DNA of 64,000 nucleotides, from the NCBI GenBank assembly GCA_964016885.1, contig OZ024740.1, positions 288,734,001-288,798,000 on the forward strand, written 5' to 3'. Origin of the DNA: Eledone cirrhosa. Lineage: Eukaryota. A program made the translations under genes and the position numbers. Every line of letters starts with the position of its first letter. Positions within the stretch are counted from its first letter, which is position 1. Shown here piece by piece: positions 36,073-64,000 of this stretch. The notes beneath the pieces were generated by a model, which had not been told where the DNA came from, made no database searches, and saw only the letters and a list, made by a program, of their open reading frames with translations.

Positions 36073-37243
<1,171 letters not shown>

Positions 37244-37616: not shown

Positions 37617-40600
37617 AGGCAGACAATGCAGATGGACAAATGATAATTCATGGCTACACACTTGAAAGATCCTTTGAAAATAATCTGATGTCTGATCGCA
37701 CTGAACTACAGAGTGTTGAAGTAGATGAAATCCATCATAAGCATTCCTTAACTCCATCTGATGAAGTCATGTGGATAAATGAATGCCAGCAAAGTGATAG
37801 GAAGAATTCAAATATCTGTGAGCGCTTTCAGGAAGTTGACAGTACATCCAGCAAGTCTTATCTCACAGAGTTGAAGCATTTTCAAGGAGATATGGATCAA
37901 TATGCCTCTAATGAATCCATGATAATTGATTTGAAGTTAAAAGAAAATCCTTTCAACCTAAATTCACACATCCATGATGAGTGCTTACATAAAGAAGAAT
38001 CTATTGCTTCAAACATGAAGACCTTACAATCTGATTCATGGAACACATCTGCTGATTATGATAACAGTTCTACATCATCTTGTATTACTGTTGTTGCTTT
38101 TGATACACAATCTATCCAAAGTTCCTCACCTGAACAACCTGACCCTGTATTAGGTTTATATGAAAAGCATTTATTTAAGTGTTCTGAAGTTGAAACCAGT
38201 TCCAACGATATACATACTTATTCCAAAGCACCATCTTCACAGAAACTGGACAATTTCAAACTTCCACCTTTTTCCTTTCCTTTTCATCCAATGTATTTTG
38301 AATCATATGACCATGGTGGAATGCCATGGCATATGTTTGGTGCTGGTAGAAACTTTCCTAATATGTATAACCATGAGAGCTTTCCAGATATGTATGGCCC
38401 TAACAGAATGTCTTTCCACAAGCATTACTCAAACAGAGATGCTCGAGACAGCTGTGATTACGACAGTATGTCTGAGTACCCATGTGACGTAAATAACAAG
38501 GCTGAGTATTTACACTGTGACAGAAAGTTTATGGATTCACAAGATGATATAGACATAAATACAGGATCTGTGTACTCATCTGACCATGACCAATCCGTAG
38601 GTAGTTCTGACACAGAAAGTTCTTTAGACACTAGCCATGACAACATAGCTCAACATACCCTTGACCATGACCCTGTATATGAGGAGACCTTTGCTTCTAA
38701 GCAACATGCTCCAGATACATTCACTTATAGCAGTGACTCACTAAATATTTACAAAGATGATAACATGATGCCCCTCGATACAGATGACCTTGAGGATTTG
38801 TCTCCAGACTTGTATAATTGCTACAGGTTGCCTTCTGACTTATACAAATATGACATGTTAACCAATGCATATGATATTGGGGAAATGAACTCTAGTAGAC
38901 TGACCATTAATTCACAGTACTGTAACACATTACCATCAATACAATCAGAGGCATACGACTCTGGTAGAATGCTAGCTGATGCATATGACCCACATAGAAT
39001 GACAGCTAATGCATATGACCCACGTAGAATGACAGCTAAGGCATATGATCCATGTAGAATGACAGCTGATGCATATGACCCGCGTAGAAGGACAGCTGAT
39101 GCATATGACCCGCGTAGAAAGACAGCTGATGCATATGACTCACATAAAATGAGAGCTAATACATATGACTCATATAGAATGACCTTTGATACTTATGACC
39201 CACCTAAAATGACAGCTAATAAAAATGACTCGCATAAAATGAAAGCTAATACATATGATTCACGTAGAATGACTTTTGATACTGCTGACTCCCATAGAAC
39301 AACAGATACATACGATTCTCATAGACTGAAAGCTAATACATTTGATTCTCGTAGAATGACAGATGATACTGCTGACTCCTGTAGAACAACAGATACATAC
39401 GATTCTCATAGACTGAGAGCTAATACATTTGATTCTCGTAGAATGACAGATGATACTGCTGACTCCTGTAGAACAACAGATACATACGATTCTCATAGAC
39501 TGAGAGCTAATATATATGATTCTCATAGAATGACAGATGGTACATATGATCCCCATAGAATGAGAGCTCATACATATGATCCCCATAGAATGAGAGCTCA
39601 TACATATGATCCCCATAGAATGAGAGCTCATACATATGATCCCCATAGAATGAGAGCTCATACATATGATCCCCATAGAATGAGCGCTAATACATGTGAT
39701 GTCCCTAGAGTGACCACTGATACATATGACTCAAATAGAATGAGCATTGATTCATTTGACTGTAATACCGTATTACATGATTCCTATGATTCTGGTAGAC
39801 TATCACCAGATATGTATGACTGTTATGCTTTATCACCATATATGTATAACTGTGACAGACATTCACCAGATACATTCAGCTTAGATCAAATGTCTGCTGA
39901 TTCATGCAATGAAGAATATGATGAAATGTTTTCTTCGAGGAATAGTCAGTCATCTGCAAATATTGATCAAAACTTTTACTCTACTAGAACTTACCCTGAA
40001 ACATTTAAAGAAAACTCTGCAATTTCTTTGAATAATATCTACAAACCAAGGAGTTTCTTTAAAAGGTGTGATAACCAGCAGCAACCTGTTAAAAATATAA
40101 GTAATATGTTCCCCCTTAGGGGATATCCTATGTCTAATATTTCTGACAGAGGTTTGATGTCCTACAGAAGATTTGATGCAGGGAGCTGTTGTGATGACAG
40201 TGATGAAAGTGATGTTTTGTCACTTGAAAGTTTAATTAATGATGACCTCAATGACATGAATAGTGAGGTCAATGGCACTGATAATCTGTTTGCAGAAGGC
40301 TATGATTTAGGGTTATTTTCTGACCTGCAGCATAGAATGAACCAAACACAGGATAAACATATATTTAACTGTGATGACTTTATATACTCACCAAATGCTA
40401 GAAATGGACAGTCTTCTGGCCAAAATGCTTTCAATGTCAGTAGACCAATGTCTAGTAAGTTCTCTGTTGATCAGAATGCACACTGGAATAGATGTAATAT
40501 TCCATTATACAGCAGCTTTAGTAACAACAATTATAATTATAACAGTTTTGATAATAACAGGGACAAGATGTACCAGCAGACAGAAGGTTCTAATTTCAAG

Positions 40601-42203
40601 AAAGACCACTTGAACAACACAAAGAAGATGGTGTCAAACAACCAATGCCAAGTGTATTCTCAGCCTGGAAGCTCTTTACAAAGTTTACAAAGCATTGACA
40701 ATTATGGCCCTGTGTTACTTCCTCCTCGCTACAAAGATTATGATAGACAATATCCTTATTCTGACAGGTTTAACAGCCATTACCCCTATATATTTGATCA
40801 ATGCTACCCAACACTACCAAATTATAATAGTGAAGATGGTGACTATATGTCTTTTGATAGTCCTAACAAAAAGAGTCTGAATAATCAAACATTTTCTCAG
40901 TTAAATGATCCTAACTTCACTCATGAAAATTTTCGTGATTTCTCAGAGAACAAGTCACTATTAGATTTTGAGAACAGAAGTATGAGTTTTCCTAAACGTT
41001 CTACTGGAGCAGGAAATTTTAATTCCCATCAGTCTTTAGATATGCACCCTAGATATGAAAGCAATCCCCAAGCTTCAAATGAAAAATTATCCAAACCCCT
41101 TCAAATGAGGAAACCAGAATACAATTGTTCCAGTCATTCTTCGTCTCTACCAAGATATCCCAGTAATATTACCCAAATGTCTAATTCTAACACTCCATTT
41201 CCTAATGCCATCAATAGTTACAACGGTGGTTTCAGATATAACAATGGGCCTTATGTAGACTTCCCACATGGTCCGAATTGGTTTGGCCAGCAAGAAATTC
41301 CTTTCCCTTTCCAAAGCTATCCTTTTGGTACCTGCACTTCCAGATCTGGTCTTAATCATTTCGGTAAGAACCAAATTCTTTCTGACTTCACTAAACCATT
41401 TTCTAACCATATTTTCTCTCCTGGAATGATATCAAATATGGTGAATGAAAGTTCTTTGAAGACCAAAGAATTACTGAGTGGACCATTAAAGGGTTCAGAT
41501 AGCCTATACTATCATGAAATTCCCAAACTGGGTGACCATTCTTGTTATAAATTTACACCTGGTAATTCTTTGGGCAGGTATGAAGGCTATTTAAAGAAAA
41601 TATCTTCTGATATATCATTAGAAGATGTACCTGCTCAAATTCCATCAAGACAAGAGGTGTCCAAGTCATCTATAGCACCTGAGGATGGTAAGCACTGCTA
41701 TGCAGTGATGCAGCAGATAAATCCTGACCAAACTTTCCCACTGACATATTCTATTGATTCTTTGTTTCTATTGGATTTTGAAATATCAAGAGTGGAAGAA
41801 AAGCTAACTTACGAAAGATCCAAATTGGAAAACCAGTCTATTGTAAGAGATAAGAAAACCCATTCTTTCACTGATATGTCTAGTGGTTTTGATGCCCTTG
41901 ATGGTCATGTGAGCACCTATTCTGGTAGAAGCATCTGTGATGTTCCTATGGTAGATGTTCAGTCACCTGCAGTGCCACCGTACACAATGCATGGTGTATC
42001 CTCCCCATGTCTTTGTGATAAGGTTAACATTAATAATACAACAGCATCTGAAGACAAGGAGATATCTTTAGAAGAATCAGGTTTGTTCACACAAGAATTT
42101 GAGATAGCTCCACCCAAAGACGAGTATATGTTCATCCTACATGGTTATGCTGCCAAGTTCAATCAAGATGTTTTTCTACACGAAGCTCTAAGTGACAGCA
42201 AAG
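37617..42203 (+). CDS. Giant exon 1 (4587 nt, 1529 codons, phase 1-1): low-complexity S/D/N/Y-rich, probably disordered insert, tentatively of a giant ankyrin gene
   Basis: The 1539-aa ORF 37601-42220 has an acceptor ttttccag|ag 16 nt after its ATG and a donor aaag|gtaatt just before its stop. Both are phase 1, matching the flanking exons. Confidence 0.85.
38951..39750 (+). repeat. Coding 30-bp (10-aa) tandem repeat [A/T]YD[P/S][H/R]RM[T/R]A[D/N/H], with an 87-bp higher-order unit
   Basis: TACATATGATCCCCATAGAATGAGAGCTCA x4 at 39541-39660. TYDSHRL(K/R)ANTFDSRRMTDDTADSCRTTD is repeated at ~39307-39480. Degenerate 10-aa periodicity extends from ~38800 to ~39900. Confidence 0.95.
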
Positions 42204-51906: not shown

Positions 51907-52461
51907 GTTCATCATCATCATCATTTAACGTCCACCTTCCACGCTTGCATGGGTTTGAACGGGAGTTTTCCCACTTGAGGCAAGATTGGTTGTCTTGCTC
52001 GTATAGGACTGTCTGGCGGGTTTTCTACGGCTGGATGCCCTTCCTAACACCAACCACATTTACAGTGTGGAATTGGGAGGTTTTTACCGTGTTACCTACA
52101 CGGCCACATTACAGCGTGGACTGTGTGTTTTTTTTTTCGTGACACCTACACGACCTCATATATATATATATATATATATATACACGTGCATTTGTGCATT
52201 TACAGAGAGAGAGAGAGAGAGAGACTGACAGAGAGAATAGTTGATAATATATATTTTCGATCAAATATTGGTAATGTGTCAGGTGGTGCTATTAAGTTAG
52301 ATATGGCCTGGGCCAATACTGGCCGAAACCTATCAAAGTTATATATATACATATTATATATATATCGTTTCTGAATTTGTTTAGCAAGATTCTTTATCTG
52401 AAAACGTGTGTTGAAACCAATATTGTTATACTTTGGGAGGGTCATGTTGCCAATAAGAAAC

Positions 52462-53169
52462 ACAGGCCTTCGTCACTGTCCCCCGACTTAGGCCCCTAAA
52501 GGCACTTGTGATCCTGGCCTTCAGATCGTCTTTTGTATTGCAGCTAGATCTGTTGGCGTCTCATTCCACTGTGCTCCACACAAAGAAGTCGCGGGGGTTG
52601 CAGTCAGGCAAGCTGGGAGGCCAGATGTCAGGTGAAGTGTGGTCGACGAAGTTCTCTGACAGCCAGGCTTGGGTCTTTCGGCTGGTATGGCAGGGCGCTG
52701 AGTCTTGCTGCCACACGTACGGCCTACCTGCAGCTACCTGGTCGATCCAGGGCTTTACTACCTCGCTCAGAACGCGGATGTAGCTATTGGTGTTCAGCTT
52801 GAGGCCCTCAGGGAAGAAGTAAGGTGGCATGATGTCACCCTGATTGCTGACGACACACAAGACCGATGTTGTAGCTGAAAACTTTGTTTGCATGACTCTG
52901 GGCACATCTTTGGATTAGACAGCGAGCCACCTGTTGTTCTGGGACTTGATCTTCTGGTCTTATTTGTCTTCCCGGCGCGGACTCCAAGAAGAACTCCGTG
53001 TCTCTTCCACAAATTTGGAGGTTCAAAATTATTCATAATCAATTATTCTGAAAATAAATAATGGAAATATACTCACTGTTTTTATGAAGACAAGAGTGAC
53101 AACGGAAGTAAAAAAAATTTGCATAAAATTAGCAGTTGAAAATTGCGAACAAATATCTTCTGCACCCTG
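52462..53169 (-). mobile_element. maT (DD37D) transposon derivative, second copy, missing one end
   Basis: ORF 52561-52905 has WQQDSAPCH…WPPSLPDCNPRDFFVW, with 37 residues between the two catalytic Asp. TIR ends at 53169. Colinear with 4611-5289. Confidence 0.9.
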
Positions 53170-53213: not shown

Positions 53214-53862
53214 AATGACACAAGAAATGCCAAGATCAGTGAATGATAATGATAGATAGATTTAAGTTTAATATACAGTAGAATAGAAATAACTTCCTGT
53301 CCTCAGTTCAGATGAGACAGAATGTGATGGAGTAGAACATTTTCTGATGATTCTTCAGTCTGAATAGGCAAACTGAAGTTACTTCTGTCTGACTCCAATA
53401 CAGCACTTCTTTTCACATATTTGCGTTGCTACTGTAACTCTTCATCCTCCTTTACCATGTAACCTAACACTTTCTTAATCATAATCACACCATATGCAAA
53501 CTAATGATTTCTTTATACTCTCAACTTTGGTCCTATTCTGTATATCCAAGCTCTTACTTAACAAATGTAGTCAAGTTGTATTTTTGTTTTGTTTACAGTT
53601 ACACATTATACATATATACGGATGCATTTACATTGGCATATTTTACATGTTCATATATGTGTGTATGCTTACACACACACATGCATACACAGTATACATA
53701 AATGAAGTATGTACTAGATATTCATATCTTTTATTGTCCCTCAATTCCAGTGCCTTTTTCACTTCATCTCTGATTAGCTTATCTCTCTGGTCTCTTTTGG
53801 TTTGGATTTTGGCTGATCATTTTTCAGCTATTAGTAACTTTTCAGTAATTTTTGCTTTACAG

Positions 53863-56800
53863 TCACTTGGAAACGTTCGAATGCTATGAAAAAAAGAAAA
53901 CACAAAAAAAAATCACCCAGTGATGCCCAGATAAAACAAGATAATGTGAGAGTAAAATTCCCTAGAGTGGAGATTAAGGTTGAAGGGGAAGCTGTTGTTG
54001 ACTCCCCTACAAATGAAATTGATGTGGAAGAATATGATAAGATTTTGGAGGATGGTACCCTGTACCATATTAAACGAGTCCGAAGATATTCACAGTCTCG
54101 TATCCACACAAAAATTGTTTCAGAAGATGGCACAGAAAGAGAGGTTGAGGAGAATATTAATATACCTGGAACAGAGGATATTGATACGATCGAGACTTTT
54201 GAGCAGCTGCCTCACTCTGAAAGTGTGGTGGAAAGTGTCTCGGAAACACTTCCTACTGGGAAGGTGGTTAAGCGAAAGGTGAAAAATATTCGAATGGTGC
54301 ACAAGGTCAAGACAAAGCATGAACACATCACGCCAGACCACACTAGCAAACGGGAAGAATATGAAATCAATGAGGTTATTCCTGGTACAGAAAATTCTTT
54401 TTACCTAGATGTTGATTCTACTCCGGTGAGTGATACCGAAAATGAAGATCAGCATCCTGCTCAGAAACCTCATATATTTGTTGACAAGAATATGTATCGT
54501 GTAGATTTACCATTTGAGCTGGAACGCTTTCATCATGTTCATCAAGATAACCAGGAAAAACTTCAAGTTGATGGTGAAGAAAGCAAACACGTTGTTCATC
54601 AACCTGTGGATCAAAATGCACAGCAAACTGTTCATAGACATAGTGATCAAGAAGGCTGGGAGGCAGATTATCTACCAGCAGATCAAGACTCACCAGAACT
54701 TGTGGAAAAGCCAATTGAGCAAGACTGTGTAAAGTCAGTGAACCTTTCTGCTACAGAAGGTCATCACTATATTTCTAATGAAGATGACTTGCATAATTTA
54801 CAACCTCTTGCCGAGGATAACCAAAACATTGATAAACATATTCCTGAAAATAGCCAACAGATTGGATTATCTGAGAGATTAGATTTCAAATGTCCAAAAA
54901 TTTCTGTAATCAAAGACGGTCAGCATGACATCATGCCCACCAATCAAGAGAGTACAAAGGTTCGACTATCAACTGGTCAAGGTGTCTATAATGTGGATCT
55001 ACCTTTAGCTTTGGAGAGTCTGCACCGACGTGACAAGAAGAACGAGCAGAGTGGTCTAAATCAAATTCAAGAAACTGAGTGTATAAGCATCCAACAAGGT
55101 ATTGAAGTTTATGCTGCACAAAGTTTTGAGCTGCCTACTGTTCAAAATACACAAGGAAGTGTTGAGCTATGCAATGGCCAAGACCCACTCCAAGATGTCA
55201 CTCCATCAAATGACATCACTATTGGACAAGATCTCCCTGAAGCTATTGAACAGTCTCTGAGAGAATATCATGTAAAACCAGTTGATCTGCCAGCAAGTGA
55301 ATATCATTTAACTGATGAACAAGATGGTCAAGAAATTAAACTGCCTTTTTTTCAAGATGTTCCATGTGTACAGATATCCAATCAAGATACTAAATCTGCT
55401 TATATTCCCAGTGAGCAATACAGTGATCCCATTGCCACACCCACAGCTCAAGAGAGACAAGATAACAGACAGTCCATTGGTGAAGGTGTCTATCATGTGG
55501 ATGTCCCTGTAGCTTTAGAGAGCCTTCATCGAATTGACCGATCTAAGGGACAAAAAACACGTGGCCACATTCATGAGCCTTCTGATCAGGGTGTCAAAAA
55601 AACTGACCATGATCTCAGAAAAAGTGTTGAGCTACACAGTGGCCAAGACCCACTCCAAGATATCACTCTGTCACCTGATCAAGATCAACAATTGCCAGAA
55701 GTGACATTGACCCATGAAAATGTTCAAACTGTTCAAATGAGCCCTGGTCAACTTCCTGGTAATTTGTCAACAGATCAAGATATTCCATGTGTACCTCCAC
55801 CTACTGGTCAAAGTAGCAGAAATTCCTTGGGTAGAGGTGTCTATCATGTTGATCAACCTGTCAGTCTGGAAACTTTATACAATGTTAAGAAACCTTCTAT
55901 TGAAGCAAGTGAGCATCCTGTTGACCATTCAGCTGATGTCATTGAGAACGATGATGTCAACATTTCTTATGCTCCACATATTCCATATGGTCAAGATTCT
56001 AATATTGAATGGAAATCTGGTCAAGATATTCCAAAAGTAAAAATGGCCAAAGGTGAAGATAATTTTCAATATGGTAGTCTACCTACAAGTGAACAGCTAC
56101 AGAAGTCAAATGTAACCACACCTACTGGTCAATATGGTGTCTACCATGTTGACCTTCCTGTGGATCTGGAACAACTACATCGTGTTGCCCAGCCTTCTCG
56201 TCCAGATGTCTCTGGATATGTAGATAAAACTATTGGTCAACCTGACATCACTGCTGGTCAAGATCTCCCTGAAGCTATTGAACAGTCTCTAGGCGAATAT
56301 CATGTAAAACCAGTTGATCTCCCAGCAGGTGAAGATCATTTAACTGATGAACAAGATGGTCAAGAAATTAAACTGCCTTCTTTTCAAGATGTTCCATGTG
56401 TACAGATATCCAATCAAGATACTAAATCGGCTTATATTCCCAGTGAGCAATACAGTGATCCCATTGCCACACCCGCAGCTCAAGAGAGACAAGATAACAG
56501 ACAGTCCATTGGTGAAGGTGTCTATCATGTGGATGTCCCTGTAGCTTTAGAGAGCCTTCATCGAATTGACCGATCTAAGGGACAAAAACCACGTGGCCAC
56601 ATTGATCAGCCTTCTGATCAGGGTATCAAAAAAACTGACCATGATCTCAGAAAAAGTGTTGAGCTACATGGTGGCCAAGACCCTCTCCAAGATATCACTC
56701 TGTCACCTGATCAAGATCGACAATTGCCAGAAGTGACATTGACCCATGAAAATGTTCAAACTGTTCAAATGAGCCCTGGTCAACTTCCTGGTAATTTGTC

Positions 56801-59800
56801 AACAGATCAAGATATTCCATGTGTACCTCTACCTACTGGTCAAAGTAGCAGAAATTCCTTGGGTAGAGGTGTCTATCATGTTGATCAACCTGTCAGTCTG
56901 GAAACTTTATACAATGTTAAGAAACCTTCTATTGAAGCAAGTGAGCATCCTGTTGACCATTCAGCTGATGTCATTGAGAACGATGATGTCAACATTTCTT
57001 ATGCTCCACATATTCCATATGGTCAAGATTCTAATATTGAATGGAAATCTGGTCAAGATATTCCAAAAGTAAAAATGGCCAAAGGTGAAGATAATTTTCA
57101 ATATGGTAGTCTACCTACAAGTGAACAGCTACAGAAGTCAAATGTAACCACACCTACTGGTCAATATGGTGTCTACCATGTTGACCTTCCTGTGGATCTG
57201 GAACAACTACATCGTGTTGCCCAGCCTTCTCGTCCAGATGTCTCTGGATATGTAGATAAAACTATTGGTCAACCTGACATCACTGCTGGTCAAGATCTCC
57301 CTGAAGCTATTGAACAGTCTCTAGGCGAATATCATGTAAAACCAGTTGATCTCCCAGCAGGTGAAGATCATTTAACTGATGAACAAGATGGTCAAGAAAT
57401 TAAACTGCCTTCTTTTCAAGATGTTCCATGTGTACAGATATCCAATCAAGATACTAAATCTGCTTATATTCCCAGTGAGCAATACAGTGATCCCATTGCC
57501 ACACCCACAGCTCAAGAGAGACAAGATAACAGACAGTCCATTGGTGAAGGTGTCTATCATGTGGATGTCCCTGTAGCTTTAGAGAGCCTTCATCGAATTG
57601 ACCGATCTAAGGGACAAAAACCACGTGGCCCCATTGATCAGCCTTCTGATCAGGGTGTCAAAAAAACTGACCATGATCTCAGAAAAAGTGTTGAGCTACA
57701 CGGTGGCCAAGACCCTCTCCAAGATATCACTCTGTCACCTGATCAAGATCAACAATTGCCAGAAGTGACATTGACCCATGAAAATGTTCAAATTGTTCAA
57801 ATGAGCCCTGGTCAACTTCCTGGTAATTTGTCAACAGATCAAGATATTCCATGTGTACCTCCACCTACTGGTCAAAGTAGCAGAAATTCGTTGGGTAGAG
57901 GTGTCTATCATGTTGATCAACCTGTCAGTCTGGAAACTTTATACAATGTTAAGAAACCTTCTATTGAAGCAAGTGAGTATCCTTCTGACCATTCAGCTGA
58001 TGTCATTGAGAACGCTGATGTTAACATTTCTTATGCTCCACATATTCCATATGGTCAAGATTCTAATATTGAATGGAAATCTGGTCAAGATATTCCAAAA
58101 GTAAAAATGGCCAAAAGTGAAGATAATTTTCAATATGGTGATCTACCTACAAGTGAACAGCTACAGAAGTCAAATGTAACCACACCTACTGGTCAATATG
58201 GTGTCTACCATGTTGACCATCCTGTGGATCTGGAACAACTACATCGTGTTGCCCAGCCTTCTCATCCAGATGTCTCTGGATATGTAGATAAAACTATTGG
58301 TCAACCTGACATCACTGCTGGTCAAGATCTCCCTGAAGCTATTGAACAGTCTCTAGGAGAATATCATGTAAAACCAGTTGATCTCCCAGCAGGTGAAGAT
58401 CATTTAACTGATGAACAAGATGGTCAAGAAATTAGACTGCCTTTTTTTCAAGATGTTCCATGTGTACAGATATCCAATCAAGATACTAAATCTGCTTATA
58501 TTCCCAGTGAGCAATACAGTGATACCATTGCCACACCCACAGCTCAAGAGAGACAAGATAACAGACAGTCCATTGGTGAAGGTGTCTATCATGTGGATGT
58601 CCCTATAGCTTTAGAGAGCCTTCATCGAATTGACCGATCTAAGGGACAAAAACCACGTAGCCATGTTCATCAGCCTTCTGATCAGGGTGTCAAAAATACT
58701 GACCATGATCTCAGAAAAAGTGTTGAGCTACACAGTGGCCAAGACCCTCTCCAAGATATCACTCTGTCACCTGATCAATATCAACAATTGCCAGAAGTGA
58801 TATTGACCCATGAAAATGTTCAAACTGTTCAAATGAGCCCTGGTCAACTTCCTGGTAATTTGTCAACAGATCAAGATATTCCATGTGTACCTCCACCTAC
58901 TGGTCAAAGTAGCAGAAATTCCTTGGGTAGAGGTGTCTATCATGTTGATCAACCTGTCAGTCTGGAAACTTTATACAATGTTAAGAAACCTTCTATTGAA
59001 GCAAGTGAGTATCCTGTTGACCATTCAGCTGATGTCAACATTTCTTATGCTCCACATATTCCATATGGTCAAGATTCTAATATTGAATGGAAATCTGGTC
59101 AAGATATTCCAAAAGTAAAAATGGCCAAAAGTGAAGATAATTTTCAATATGGTGATCTACCTACAAGTGAACAGCTACAGAAGTCAAATGTAACCACACC
59201 TACTGGTCAATATGGTGTCTACCATGTTGACCTTCCTGTGGATCTGGAACAACTACATTGTGTTGCCCAGCCTTCTCGTCCAGATGTCTCTGGATATGTA
59301 GATAAAACTATTGGTCAACCTGACATCACTGCTGGTCAAGATCTCCCTGAAGCTATTGAACAGTCTCAAGGAGAATATCATGTAAAACCAGTTGATCTCT
59401 CAGCAGGTGAAGATCATTTAACTGATGAACAAGATGGTCAAGAAATTAAACTGCCTTCTTTTCAAGATGTTCCATGTGTACAGATATCCAATCAAGATAC
59501 TAAATCTGCTTATATTCCCAGTGAGCAATACAGTGATCCCATTGCCACACCCACAGCTCAAGAGAGACAAGATAACAGACAGTCCATTGGTGAAGGTGTC
59601 TATCATGTGGATGTCCCTATAGCTTTAGAGAGCCTTCATCGAATTGACCGATCTAAGGGACAAAAACCACGTAGCCATGTTCATCAGCCTTCTGATCAGG
59701 GTGTCAAAAATACTGACCATGATCTCAGAAAAAGTGTTGAGCTACACAGTGGCCAAGACCCTCTCCAAGATATCACTCTGTCACCTGATCAATATCAACA

Positions 59801-62800
59801 ATTGCCAGAAGTGATATTGACCCATGAAAATGTTCAAACTGTTCAAATGAGCCCTGGTCAACTTCCTGGTAATTTGTCAACAGATCAAGATATTCCATGT
59901 GTACCTCCACCTACTGGTCAAAGTAGCAGAAATTCCTTGGGTAGAGGTGTCTATCATGTTGATCAACCTGTCAGTCTGGAAACTTTATACAATGTTAAGA
60001 AACCTTCTATTGAAGCAAGTGAGTATCCTGTTGACCATTCAGCTGATGTCATTGAGAACGCTGATGTCAACATTTCTTATGCTCCACATATTCCATATGG
60101 TCAAGATTCTAATATTGAATGGAAATCTGGTCAAGATATTCCAAAAGTAAAAATGGCCAAAAGTGAAGATAATTTTCAATATGGTGATCTACCTACAAGT
60201 GAACAGCTACAGAAGTCAAATGTAACCACACCTACTGGTCAATATGGTGTCTACCATGTTGACCTTCCTGTGGATCTGGAACAACTACATTGTGTTGCCC
60301 AGCCTTCTCGTCCAGATGTCTCTGGATATGTAGATAAAACTATTGGTCAACCTGACATCACTGCTGGTCAAGATCTCCCTGAAGCTATTGAACAATCTCA
60401 AGGAGAATATCATGTAAAACCAGTTGATCTCCCAGCAGGTGAAGATCATTTAACTGATGAACAAGATGGTCAAGAAATTAAACTGCCTTCTTTTCAAGAT
60501 GTTCCATGTGTACAGATATCCAATCAAGATACTAAATCTGCTTATATTCCCAGTGAGCAATACAGTGATCCCATTGCCACACCCACAGCTCAAGAGAGAC
60601 AAGATAACAGACAGTCCATTGGTGAAGGTGTCTATCATGTGGATGTCCCTATAGCTTTAGAGAGCCTTCATCGAATTGACCGATCTAAGGGACAAAAACC
60701 ACGTAGCCATGTTCATCAGCCTTCTGATCAGGGTGTCAAAAATACTGACCATGATCTCAGAAAAAGTGTTGAGCTACACAGTGGCCAAGACCCTCTCCAA
60801 GATATCACTCTGTCACCTGATCAATATCAACAATTGCCAGAAGTGATATTGACCCATGAAAATGTTCAAACTGTTCAAATGAGCCCTGGTCAACTTCCTG
60901 GTAATTTGTCAACAGATCAAGATATTCCATGTGTACCTCCACCTACTGGTCAAAGTAGCAGAAATTCCTTGGGTAGAGGTGTCTATCATGTTGATCAACC
61001 TGTCAGTCTGGAAACTTTATACAATGTTAAGAAACCTTCTATTGAAGCAAGTGAGTATCCTGTTGACCATTCAGCTGATGTCATTGAGAACGATGATGTC
61101 AACATTTCTTATGCTCCACATATTCCATATGGTCAAGATTCTAATATTGAATGGAAATCTGGTCAAGATATTCCAAAAGTAAAAATGGCCAAAAGTGAAG
61201 ATAATTTTCAATATGGTGATCTACCTACAAGTGAACAGCTACAGAAGTCAAATGTAACCACACCTACTGGTCAATATGGTGTCTACCATGTTGACCATCC
61301 TGTGGATCTGGAACAACTACATCGTGTTGCCCAGCCTTCTCATCCAGATGTCTCTGGATATGTAGATAAAACTATTGGTCAACCTGACATCACTGCTGGT
61401 CAAGATCTCCCTGAAGCTATTGAACAGTCTCTAGGAGAATATCATGTAAAACCAGTTGATCTCCCAGCAGGTGAAGATCATTTAACTGATGAACAAGATG
61501 GTCAAGAAATTAAACTGCCTTTTTTTCAAGATGTTCCATGTGTACAGATATCCAATCAAGATACTAAATCTGCTTATATTCCCAGTGAGCAATACAGTGA
61601 TCCCATTGCCACACCCACAGCTCAAGAGAGACAAGATAACAGACAGTCCATTGGTGAAGGTGTCTATCATGTGGATGTCCCTGTAGCTTTAGAGAGCCTT
61701 CATCGAATTGACCGATCTAAGGGACAAAAACCACGTGGCCACATTGATCAGCCTTCTGATCAGGGTATCAAAAAAACTGACCATGATCTCAGAAAAAGTG
61801 TTGAGCTACACGGTGGCCAAGACCCTCTCCAAGATATCACTCTGTCACCTGATCAAGATCGACAATTGCCAGAAGTGACATTGACCCATGAAAATGTTCA
61901 AACTGTTCAAATGAGCCCTGGTCAACTTCCTGGTAATTTGTCAACAGATCAAGATATTCCATGTGTACCTCTACCTACTGGTCAAAGTAGCAGAAATTCC
62001 TTGGGTAGAGGTGTCTATCATGTTGATCAACCTGTCAGTCTGGAAACTTTATACAATGTTAAGAAACCTTCTATTGAAGCAAGTGAGCATCCTGTTGACC
62101 ATTCAGCTGATGTCATTGAGAACGATGATGTCAACATTTCTTATGCTCCACATATTCCATATGGTCAAGATTCTAATATTGAATGGAAATCTGGTCAAGA
62201 TATTCCAAAAGTAAAAATGGCCAAAGGTGAAGATAATTTTCAATATGGTGATCTACCTACAAGTGAACAGCTACAGAAGTCAAATGTAACCACACCTACT
62301 GGTCAATATGGTGTCTACCATGTTGACCTTCCTGTGGATCTGGAACAACTACATCGTGTTGCCCAGCCTTCTCGTCCGGATGTCTCTGGATATGTTGATA
62401 AAACTATTGGTCAACCTGACATCACTGCTGGTCAAGATCTCCCTGAAGCTATTGAACAGTCTCTAGGAGAATATCATGTAAAACCAGTTTATCTCCCAGC
62501 AGGTGAAGATCATTTAACTGATGAACAAGATGGTCAAGAAATTAAACTGCCTTCTTTTCAAGATGTTCCATGTGTACAGATATCCAATCAAGATACTAAA
62601 TCTGCTTATATTCCCAGTGAGCAATACAGTGATCCCATTGCCACACCCACAGCTCAAGAGAGACAAGATAACAGACAGTCCATTGGTGAAGGTGTCTATC
62701 ATGTGGATGTCCCTATAGCTTTAGAGAGCCTTCATCGAATTGACCGATCTAAGGGACAAAAACCACGTGGCCACATTCATCAGCCTTCTGATCAGGGTGT

Positions 62801-64000
62801 CAAAAAAACTGACCATGATCTCAGAAAAAGTGTTGAGCTACACAGTGGCCAAGACCCTCTCCAAGATATCACTCTGTCACCTGATCAAGATCAACAATTG
62901 CCAGACGTGACATTGACCCATGAAAATGTTCAAACTGTTCAAATGAGCCCTGGTCAACTTCCTGGTAATTTGTCAACAGATCAAGATATTCCATGTTTAC
63001 CTCCACCTACTGGTCAAAGTAGCAGAAATTCCTTGGGTAGAGGTGTCTATCATGTTGATCAACCTGTCAGTCTGGAAACTTTATACAATGTTAAGAAACC
63101 TTCTATTGAAGCAAGTGAGTATCCTTCTGACCATTCAGCTGATGTCATTGAGAATGCTGATGTCAACATTTCTTATGCTCCACATATTCCATATGGTCAA
63201 GATTCTAATATTGAATGGAAATCTGGTCAAGATATTCCAAAAGTAAAAATGGCCAAAAGTGAAGATAATTTTCAATATGGTGGTCTACCTACAAGTGAAC
63301 AGCTACAGAAGTCAAATGTAACCACACCTACTGGTCAATATGGTGTCTACCATGTTGACCTTCCTGTGGATCTGGAACAACTACATCGTGTTGCCCAGCC
63401 TTCTCGTCCAGATGTCTCTGGATATGTAGATAAAACTATTGGTCAACCTGACATCACTACTGGTCAAGATCTCCCTGAAGCTATTGAACAGTCTCTAGGA
63501 GAATATCATTTAAAACCAGTTGATCTCCCAGCAGGTGAAGATCATTTAACTGATGAACAAGATGGTCAAGAAATTAAACTGCCTTCTTTTCAAGATGTTC
63601 CACGTGTACAGATATCCAATCAAGATACTAAATCTGCTTATATTCCCAGTGAGCAATACAGTGATCCCATTGCCACACCCACAGCTCAAGAGAGACAAGA
63701 TAACAGACAGTCCATTGGTGAAGGTGTCTATCATGTGGATGTCCCTGTAGCTTTAGAGAGCCTTCATCGAATTGACCGATCTAAGGGACAAAAACCACGT
63801 GGCCACATTCATCAGCCTTCTGATCAGGATGTCAAAAAAACTGACCATGATCTCAGAAAAAGTGTTGAGCTACACAGTGGCCAAGATATCACTCTGTCAC
63901 CTGATCAAGATCAACAATTGCCAGAAGTGACATTGACTCATAATCTCAGAAAAAGTGTCCAACCTATTGATCAGGATGTTGAAGAATATTGCTATTATGT
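53863..64000 (+). CDS. Giant exon 2 (>10,138 nt, open to window end): unique ~450-aa N-terminal part then ~8.5 x 344-aa repeats; tentatively a giant ankyrin long exon
   Basis: Acceptor tttttgctttacag|tc, phase 1. Frame +3 reads (V)TWKRSNAMKKRKHKKKSP…IDVEEYDKILEDGTLYHIKRVRR…EEYEINEVIPGTENSF… and is still in frame at the end (…VQPIDQDVEEYCYY). The in-frame ATG at 53886 is absent from the ORF track, as expected if no stop occurs. Confidence 0.92.
55212..63940 (+). repeat. Coding tandem array of 1032-bp units (8 full plus ~0.47)
   Basis: Unit starts (GACATCACT) at 55212, 56244, 57276, 58308, 59322, 60354, 61386, 62418 and 63450. Unit 4 is 1014 bp. The off-frame ORFs in the track recur with the same spacing. 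Confidence 0.98.

Follow-up and report, generated by a model that had tools for sequence, protein, structure and literature searches.

A 64,000-nucleotide (nt) stretch of the Eledone cirrhosa genome (contig OZ024740.1, positions 288,734,001 to 288,798,000, forward strand; hereafter, the window) lies in an ankyrin gene and contains the start of a giant exon, G2, that encodes 8.5 near-identical units of 344 amino acids (aa) in tandem. That G2 is a real spliced exon of the octopod ankyrin gene is, as regards the identity of the exon alone, close to certain. With modest confidence, we further favour a reading in which the 8.5 repeats of this spliced ankyrin exon form a disordered spacer with a regularly spaced motif predicted to bind partners. 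Positions beyond 64000 continue the window numbering into neighbouring genome sequence (extended positions), and G000 denotes this assembly.

Frame +3 is open from 53838 to the end of the window, in agreement with the stop-free frame to 64000 reported in an earlier note on this DNA, and translation beyond the window reaches its first stop at extended position 66450, after 4,204 open codons; the other two forward frames contain 107 and 398 stops. The open frame, splice sites, a contig and orthologues together define G2 as 53863..64000, continuing to extended 66432 (plus strand, G000:C1:288787863-288800432), an exon of 12,570 bp and 4,189 whole codons with phase 1-1 borders. A polypyrimidine tract and AG acceptor (53833..53862, plus strand) end in TTTACAG/TC at 53863, and the donor ACAAG/GTAATT follows extended 66432, 2.4 kb beyond the window. 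The 5′ acceptor is backed by a spliced contig, and the 3′ donor is deduced from the sequence and from Octopus gene models.

Seven public sequencing runs are listed, none recorded as RNA, and four were mapped onto 53230-56243. Run X4 is called RNA-like from its coverage alone, with zero depth in five of six purely intronic bins (almost no intron coverage). It yields a single 1,424-nt contig that spans 53861-55256 and carries 28 loose 5′ letters, which match a single place, the 3′ end of an ankyrin exon at G000:C1:288727995, about 59.9 kb upstream. The junction connects this exon, which follows the death domain, to 53863 in frame, bypassing the candidate giant exon G1 and the last exon of the short isoforms. 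It bears out the phase-1 acceptor that the earlier note had placed at 53863, and a lack of spliced reads there, which that note had named as fatal to its reading, is not what is seen. Run X1 shows contiguous coverage across the intron and no junction of the X4 type, and the restriction-site-associated DNA sequencing runs X5 and X6 are uninformative, at 11 and 13 reads.

The host is a canonical ankyrin gene. Upstream of the window, on the same strand, Pfam matches above cut-off locate a ZU5 domain at a distance of 40.6 kb and a death domain at 15 kb; over the ZU5 exon, identity to Octopus bimaculoides ankyrin is 100%. Mapping of 49 proteins onto the locus (48 O. bimaculoides isoforms and one from a bivalve) shows core exons collinear with O. 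bimaculoides isoforms that bear ANK, ZU5, UPA and Death domains, mapped from residue 130 on (their first 129 residues fall outside the mapped part), and the ANK-ZU5-ZU5-UPA-death domain core is in order on one strand. The borders of the examined tail exons, downstream of the death domain, are all phase 1.

Within G2, unit alignment, a genome search and junctions in the runs delimit a tandem array of eight full units and one half unit of 1032 bp (344 aa) at 55212..63945 (plus strand). Units start at 55212, 56244, 57276, 58308, 59322, 60354, 61386, 62418 and 63450; seven measure 1032 bp, one measures 1014 bp through an 18-bp deletion, and the half unit has a 12-bp deletion, both in frame. These indels and the near-identical units from 55212 had been described earlier, and the alignment reproduces them, with pairwise identities among the eight full units of 97.3-99.5% (mean 98.1%). 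Shuffled units contain a mean of 20.9 stops and a minimum of 6 (2000 shuffles). A search of the genome DNA with one unit returned nine matches, all inside the array (repeat counts from this search are lower bounds), and a dispersed satellite or transposon was rejected on the same ground, that the unit has no genome match outside the array.

The earlier note had taken the array to continue from 55212 onwards; the array is real but ends within the window, near 63945, and the exit sequence (63946..64000, plus strand), where the post-array region starts, turns up among the loose ends of X4 and of X1. Past the window, the same exon continues with 31 copies of a 16-aa His/Cys/Gly/Gln repeat (extended 64521-~66000) and then a Ser/Lys tail. 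The O. bimaculoides model has 21 copies of this 16-aa repeat, which is present in Octopus sinensis too; metal binding would be a guess.

The copies are mosaic. Site pairs that are incompatible in the four-gamete test number 5 of 94 when less than 200 bp apart and 73 of 182 when distant, as expected from unequal crossing-over or conversion. Upstream of the array, a unique acidic linker (54432..55211, plus strand) contains two degenerate copies of the repeat motif (54492 and 54984) and matches the unit at 33% identity over 179 aa (E 3e-18); since degenerate copies precede the array, the unit is built from older sub-repeats.

Ahead of this linker, the exon opens with a 145-aa module of two similar halves (53997..54431, plus strand), recognized by HMMER and AlphaFold2, predicted to be all-beta and belonging to no Pfam family. 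The earlier statement that the sequence has no known domain thus stands as far as Pfam goes, and fails to the extent that this conserved module is predicted to fold: the AlphaFold2 model, from 29 sequences, has eight strands and a predicted local distance difference test score (pLDDT) of 93.4. A HMMER search with the first 793 aa of G2 against 1.84 billion representatives gave 37 matches, and in 36 of them the best-matching stretch is the module; a preceding word-indexed search for the module in proteins of 281-2000 aa had scored none of its 662 candidates. Two of the 19 module matches looked up carry organism names, Mytilus and Arion. The Arion protein (P0140) fits a death domain, the module and the same last exon into 955 aa, without giant inserts, and this one protein suggests an old, short molluscan tail exon that may have ballooned in octopods. 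A second copy of the module (G000:C25:16499900-16500750, plus strand) is 42% identical, lies in a frame of about 280 aa and stands closer to other homologues of the module (53% identity to P0124); since it sits on another contig, the module is not confined to the ankyrin locus.

Structural comparison leaves the fold of the module unassigned. The ESM Atlas held no usable match for module or unit, and Foldseek against the PDB returned nothing for the module at E<=0.001. In a wide structure comparison (VIA), the best hit reached Z 6.9 with a root mean square deviation of 5.6 over 81 aligned residues, a range common for unrelated sheets, and for the predicted model this result would establish neither a known nor a new fold.

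One of the 37 matches also covers the repeat: the O. bimaculoides protein LOC106881226, labelled ‘titin-like’ (XP_014787059.1; 7,658 aa), whose model consists of G2, the downstream exons G3, G4 and G5, and the same last exon, without the ankyrin core. In a second search, of proteins of 4,211-13,402 aa, two of 2,431 candidates were recovered, this protein and an O. sinensis ‘titin’ (XP_036357709.1). The orthologous Octopus exons share the motifs, the 16-aa repeat and the tail, followed by G3-G5 and the same last exon, and the module is seen in the O. bimaculoides model of the exon. Compared with O. bimaculoides, the unit is 48% identical (160 of 332 residues) and the module 69%; outside their repeats, G3-G5 reach 88-93%. 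The O. bimaculoides exon has about two divergent units, 54-68% alike, with short-read collapse possible in its assembly; O. sinensis has at least four units of a different length, 208 aa, 93-97% alike, in a model that begins inside the array. Segments from the window are 95-100% alike among themselves and 52-57% alike to all Octopus copies. Amplification or homogenization thus took place separately in the lineages, with differing unit lengths; the identity of the units, their variants and the species comparison all support the recent amplification or homogenization proposed earlier.

A 17-aa motif, GVYHVDxPVxLExLHR, recurs three times per unit, and the array contains 25 GVYHVD at spacings of 117/100/127 aa. 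It is counted 27 times here, at least 12 times in O. sinensis and 7 times in the O. bimaculoides model. Between Eledone and O. bimaculoides, the motif is 82% identical (42 of 51) compared with 42% elsewhere in the unit (118 of 281; Fisher P 8e-8). Variants within the array fall at 3 of 51 motif sites and at 39 of 293 sites elsewhere. A structure model of the unit, built from a 6-row alignment, has a pLDDT of 31, which is compatible with disorder and weakly favours it, in line with the probable disorder earlier proposed for the unit. 

Long repeat-bearing exons are known from other ankyrin genes. The survey PMC5135030 describes such exons behind the death domain throughout protostomes (two in 8 of 23 genes), with repeat units of 12-76 aa, serine plus glutamate (S+E) near 25% and the residues SETDKP above 55%; it lists no cephalopod. 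It also records a 27.8-kb Drosophila Ank2-XL exon with 93 repeats of 76 aa (section 8, Table S4), Aplysia exons of 7,569 and 6,560 bp with 32- and 24-aa repeats, a Lottia exon of 6,818 bp and a C. elegans unc-44 exon of 14,974 bp (Table S4). In fly, Ank2-XL has been linked to MAP1B/Futsch and microtubules (PMC6703079). Like the Aplysia, Lottia and unc-44 exons of the survey, G2 is a multi-kilobase single open exon downstream of the death domain, in a group of varying repeat content. Like Ank2-XL, it combines an ankyrin gene, a long exon after the death domain, a homogenized tandem array and a proposed role as molecular spacer; since the host is an ankyrin gene itself, the comparison with Ank2-XL drawn in the earlier note is more than the analogy it was offered as. 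Compared by published features, G2 differs from Ank2-XL in its 344-aa unit, composed of three older sub-repeats and present in 8.5 copies, in its Q/D/G-rich composition and in the predicted folded module at its start.

The composition rule of the survey is followed by G3 (S+E 28.0%, SETDKP 67.2%) and G5 (28.9% and 59.4%). Since G2 does not follow it, we file G2 as a variant exon in a giant-ankyrin gene and not as a canonical long exon; it appears to be an additional exon type. No gene in the survey has more than two long exons; the gene described here possesses G2, G3 and G5 (8-12.6 kb) in addition to the candidate G1. Long repeat-bearing ankyrin exons are thus known, and the 344-aa unit, the atypical composition and the presence of three or four giant exons are new. 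Against the survey, the upper bound of the ankyrin repeat unit moves from 76 to 344 aa, and a single gene carries three or four long exons where two had been the most. Our literature search, which mostly lay outside subscription journals, found no paper on giant exons of cephalopod ankyrins.

The favoured reading supposes that, once the lineages had separated, the array grew through unequal crossing-over and gene conversion, and that the frame would have survived because unit lengths are multiples of three. With G2 included, about 4,190 residues would separate the ankyrin head, which binds membrane and spectrin, from the conserved distal giant exons, in an isoform of roughly 12,000-12,500 aa if splicing proceeds as in the Octopus gene models. 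Selection would preserve the beta module and the 17-aa motif and keep the frame free of stops, with little constraint on the linker and the exact copy number. That the exon might help to space the cytoskeleton of axons is an idea borrowed from Drosophila Ank2-XL.

Several points weigh against this reading. The junction at 53863 is seen in one contig of one run, X4, whose kind and tissue are unrecorded, and the join of G2 to G3 is taken from Octopus models, with no read support in this species. G2 is the least conserved of the giant exons, as its unit identity shows beside the values for G3-G5, and it departs from the composition rule (S+E 14.7%, SETDKP 42.0%). The 17-aa motif was picked by eye and has no known binding partner, and the apparent deficit of variants within it comes from small numbers. 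The low pLDDT of the unit stems from its 6-row alignment, and FoldIndex labels even the confidently modelled 145-aa module unfolded. G2 has no SxIP match, which counts against the reading, and none to an extended LC3-interacting region (LIR) pattern either. Finally, the variants among copies (46 nonsynonymous, 15 synonymous; ratio 0.87, P 0.64) look neutral at the protein level, and the absence of stops among 61 variants reaches only P ~0.08.

These last figures bear on the main rival, a tolerated neutral expansion, in which the exon is translated, the array, part of a disordered region that the protein can do without, drifts through unequal crossing-over, and its copy number is inert. The ratio of nonsynonymous to synonymous rates (dN/dS) of ~0.9-1.15 among copies is what this rival predicts, and it also accommodates the low unit identity between species and the different units amplified in each. 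According to PMC5135030 (section 8), a fraction of the fly XL array suffices for axon diameter, and arrays are not conserved over long distances. The motif argues in the other direction: it is retained in all three sub-repeats and in three species, with an identity double that of the background. Amplification has also hit one and the same region of the exon more than once, and the motif is present in each of the two amplified units. On this evidence, we consider neutral expansion somewhat unlikely; if copy number is indeed neutral, the array would show cleanly how a coding macrosatellite drifts within a giant exon.

A bolder form of the spacer reading treats G2 as an evolvable ruler: an extra octopod giant exon that would display a conserved, putative binding motif every 100-127 residues, and in which lineages independently amplified blocks of motifs of 208 or 344 aa. 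Taken as a whole, this is rather unlikely. Cephalopods conduct without myelin, and if the ruler were real, copy number would tune how the cytoskeleton beneath the membrane of their unmyelinated axons is spaced, or its valency, and a molluscan beta-sheet domain that had no name before would serve as anchor. In any case, octopods offer a natural series of lengths, together with a conserved motif and a domain not yet named, through which the giant-ankyrin spacer idea becomes testable in cephalopods.

Doubtful, to a greater degree, is a non-neural isoform, for example in muscle, in which module and repeats would anchor the protein to a cytoskeletal system other than axonal microtubules. The composition of G2, different from that of the canonical long exons G3 and G5, would fit such an isoform, as would the Arion protein, with its death domain, module and terminal exon and no giant inserts, and the second module copy on another contig. 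However, Octopus models splice G2 together with G3-G5. The obscurin-binding tail of vertebrate ankyrins, a lead for the module, gains no support from the module hidden Markov model (HMM): vertebrate ankyrin tails score at best 3.6 bits, against 5.4 bits for shuffles, and among 69 proteins (P0052-P0120, mostly vertebrate ankyrins) whose final 350 aa were scanned, the best E value is 0.21.

The database labels raise another alternative, a separate ‘titin-like’ gene that starts at the first Met of the exon, as annotated in RefSeq for two Octopus species. Among O. bimaculoides models, 13 of the 15 listed begin with that Met, and the O. sinensis models, 11 in all, begin within the array; every one lacks an ankyrin core. 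The spliced, in-frame X4 junction to an ankyrin exon contradicts such a gene, as does the Arion protein that joins death domain, module and same last exon; the idea is already largely refuted, and we regard it as very improbable. The titin identity itself was rejected. Titin consists of arrays of Ig and Fn3 domains and a kinase, and scans of three parts of G2 returned no Ig, Fn3, kinase or other Pfam match above cut-off; precomputed Pfam domains are likewise absent for the fetched proteins P0121 and P0175. Most likely, the Octopus ‘titin’ models of 7,500-8,000 aa represent a giant-ankyrin tail, and databases already contain the orthologous exon, wrongly named.

The least credible alternative is an assembly artefact that inflated one or two units to 8.5, which could draw on the likeness of the units (97-99.5%), the absence of a single read seen to span the array and the possibility that X1 is the assembly’s own sample, and which is contradicted by the runs. 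Depth over the unit is 78.6-84.6 against 7.76 in the unique flank in X1, and ~173 against 14.9 in X4. Such depth, about ten times the flank, does not amount to a copy number; it nevertheless makes one or two copies unlikely. The 1032-bp head-to-tail joint and the array exit are found in both runs, and at the two sites checked, unit variants in X4 have shares matching the assembly (43% against 3 of 7 units; 58% against 5 of 8). The earlier caution that copy number might be mis-assembled thus finds no backing at the level of one or two units, and the exact count could be slightly off.

The remaining exons of the tail are arranged around G2 on the plus strand. An alternative ankyrin tail exon that starts ahead of the window has its 3′ end just inside it (1..33; matched by 25 of 49 query proteins) and is followed by a small alternative phase 1-1 exon (4143..4199; 9 of 49, 95% identity) and the terminal exon of short ankyrin isoforms, which ends in a stop (30224..30319; 48 of 49, 88% identity) and is bypassed by transcripts that contain G2. 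Five long open frames, G1-G5, follow, every one phase 1-1. Candidate G1 (37617..42203; 4,587 bp, 1,528 aa) is S/D/N/Y-rich with 10-aa repeats and is left out of the one junction seen; it has no match among the fetched ankyrin or ‘titin’ proteins and nothing above cut-off in a Pfam scan. G3 (extended 82160-90274), G4 (95578-96423) and G5 (110303-120220) lie downstream of G2 as open frames. G3 contains a Ser/Pro/Lys repeat array and one match to the extended-LIR pattern, at residue 1337, which resembles the Atg8-binding motifs of vertebrate giant ankyrins. G5, with Thr-rich repeats, four SLxEFE motifs near its end and 93% identity to O. bimaculoides outside the repeats, is probably a canonical long exon.

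Several repetitive elements lie in the introns of the gene. TA-rich microsatellites at 11489-18051 (6.5 kb) and 36073-37228 (1.2 kb) give spurious long open reading frames, and a GC-rich interspersed element has three intronic copies (~4500-5180, 52450-53060 and extended ~69320-69750). A 683-codon frame in an ankyrin-repeat intron (G000:C1:288611279-288613327, plus strand) resembles, by eye, a reverse transcriptase of a long interspersed nuclear element. A run of 200 N is located in the 5′ part of the gene (~G000:C1:288598397-288598596); the window and the 100 kb that follow it are free of such runs. Near the end of the gene, an intron contains a 3-kb, GC-richer short tandem repeat with open frames (extended 128183-131368).

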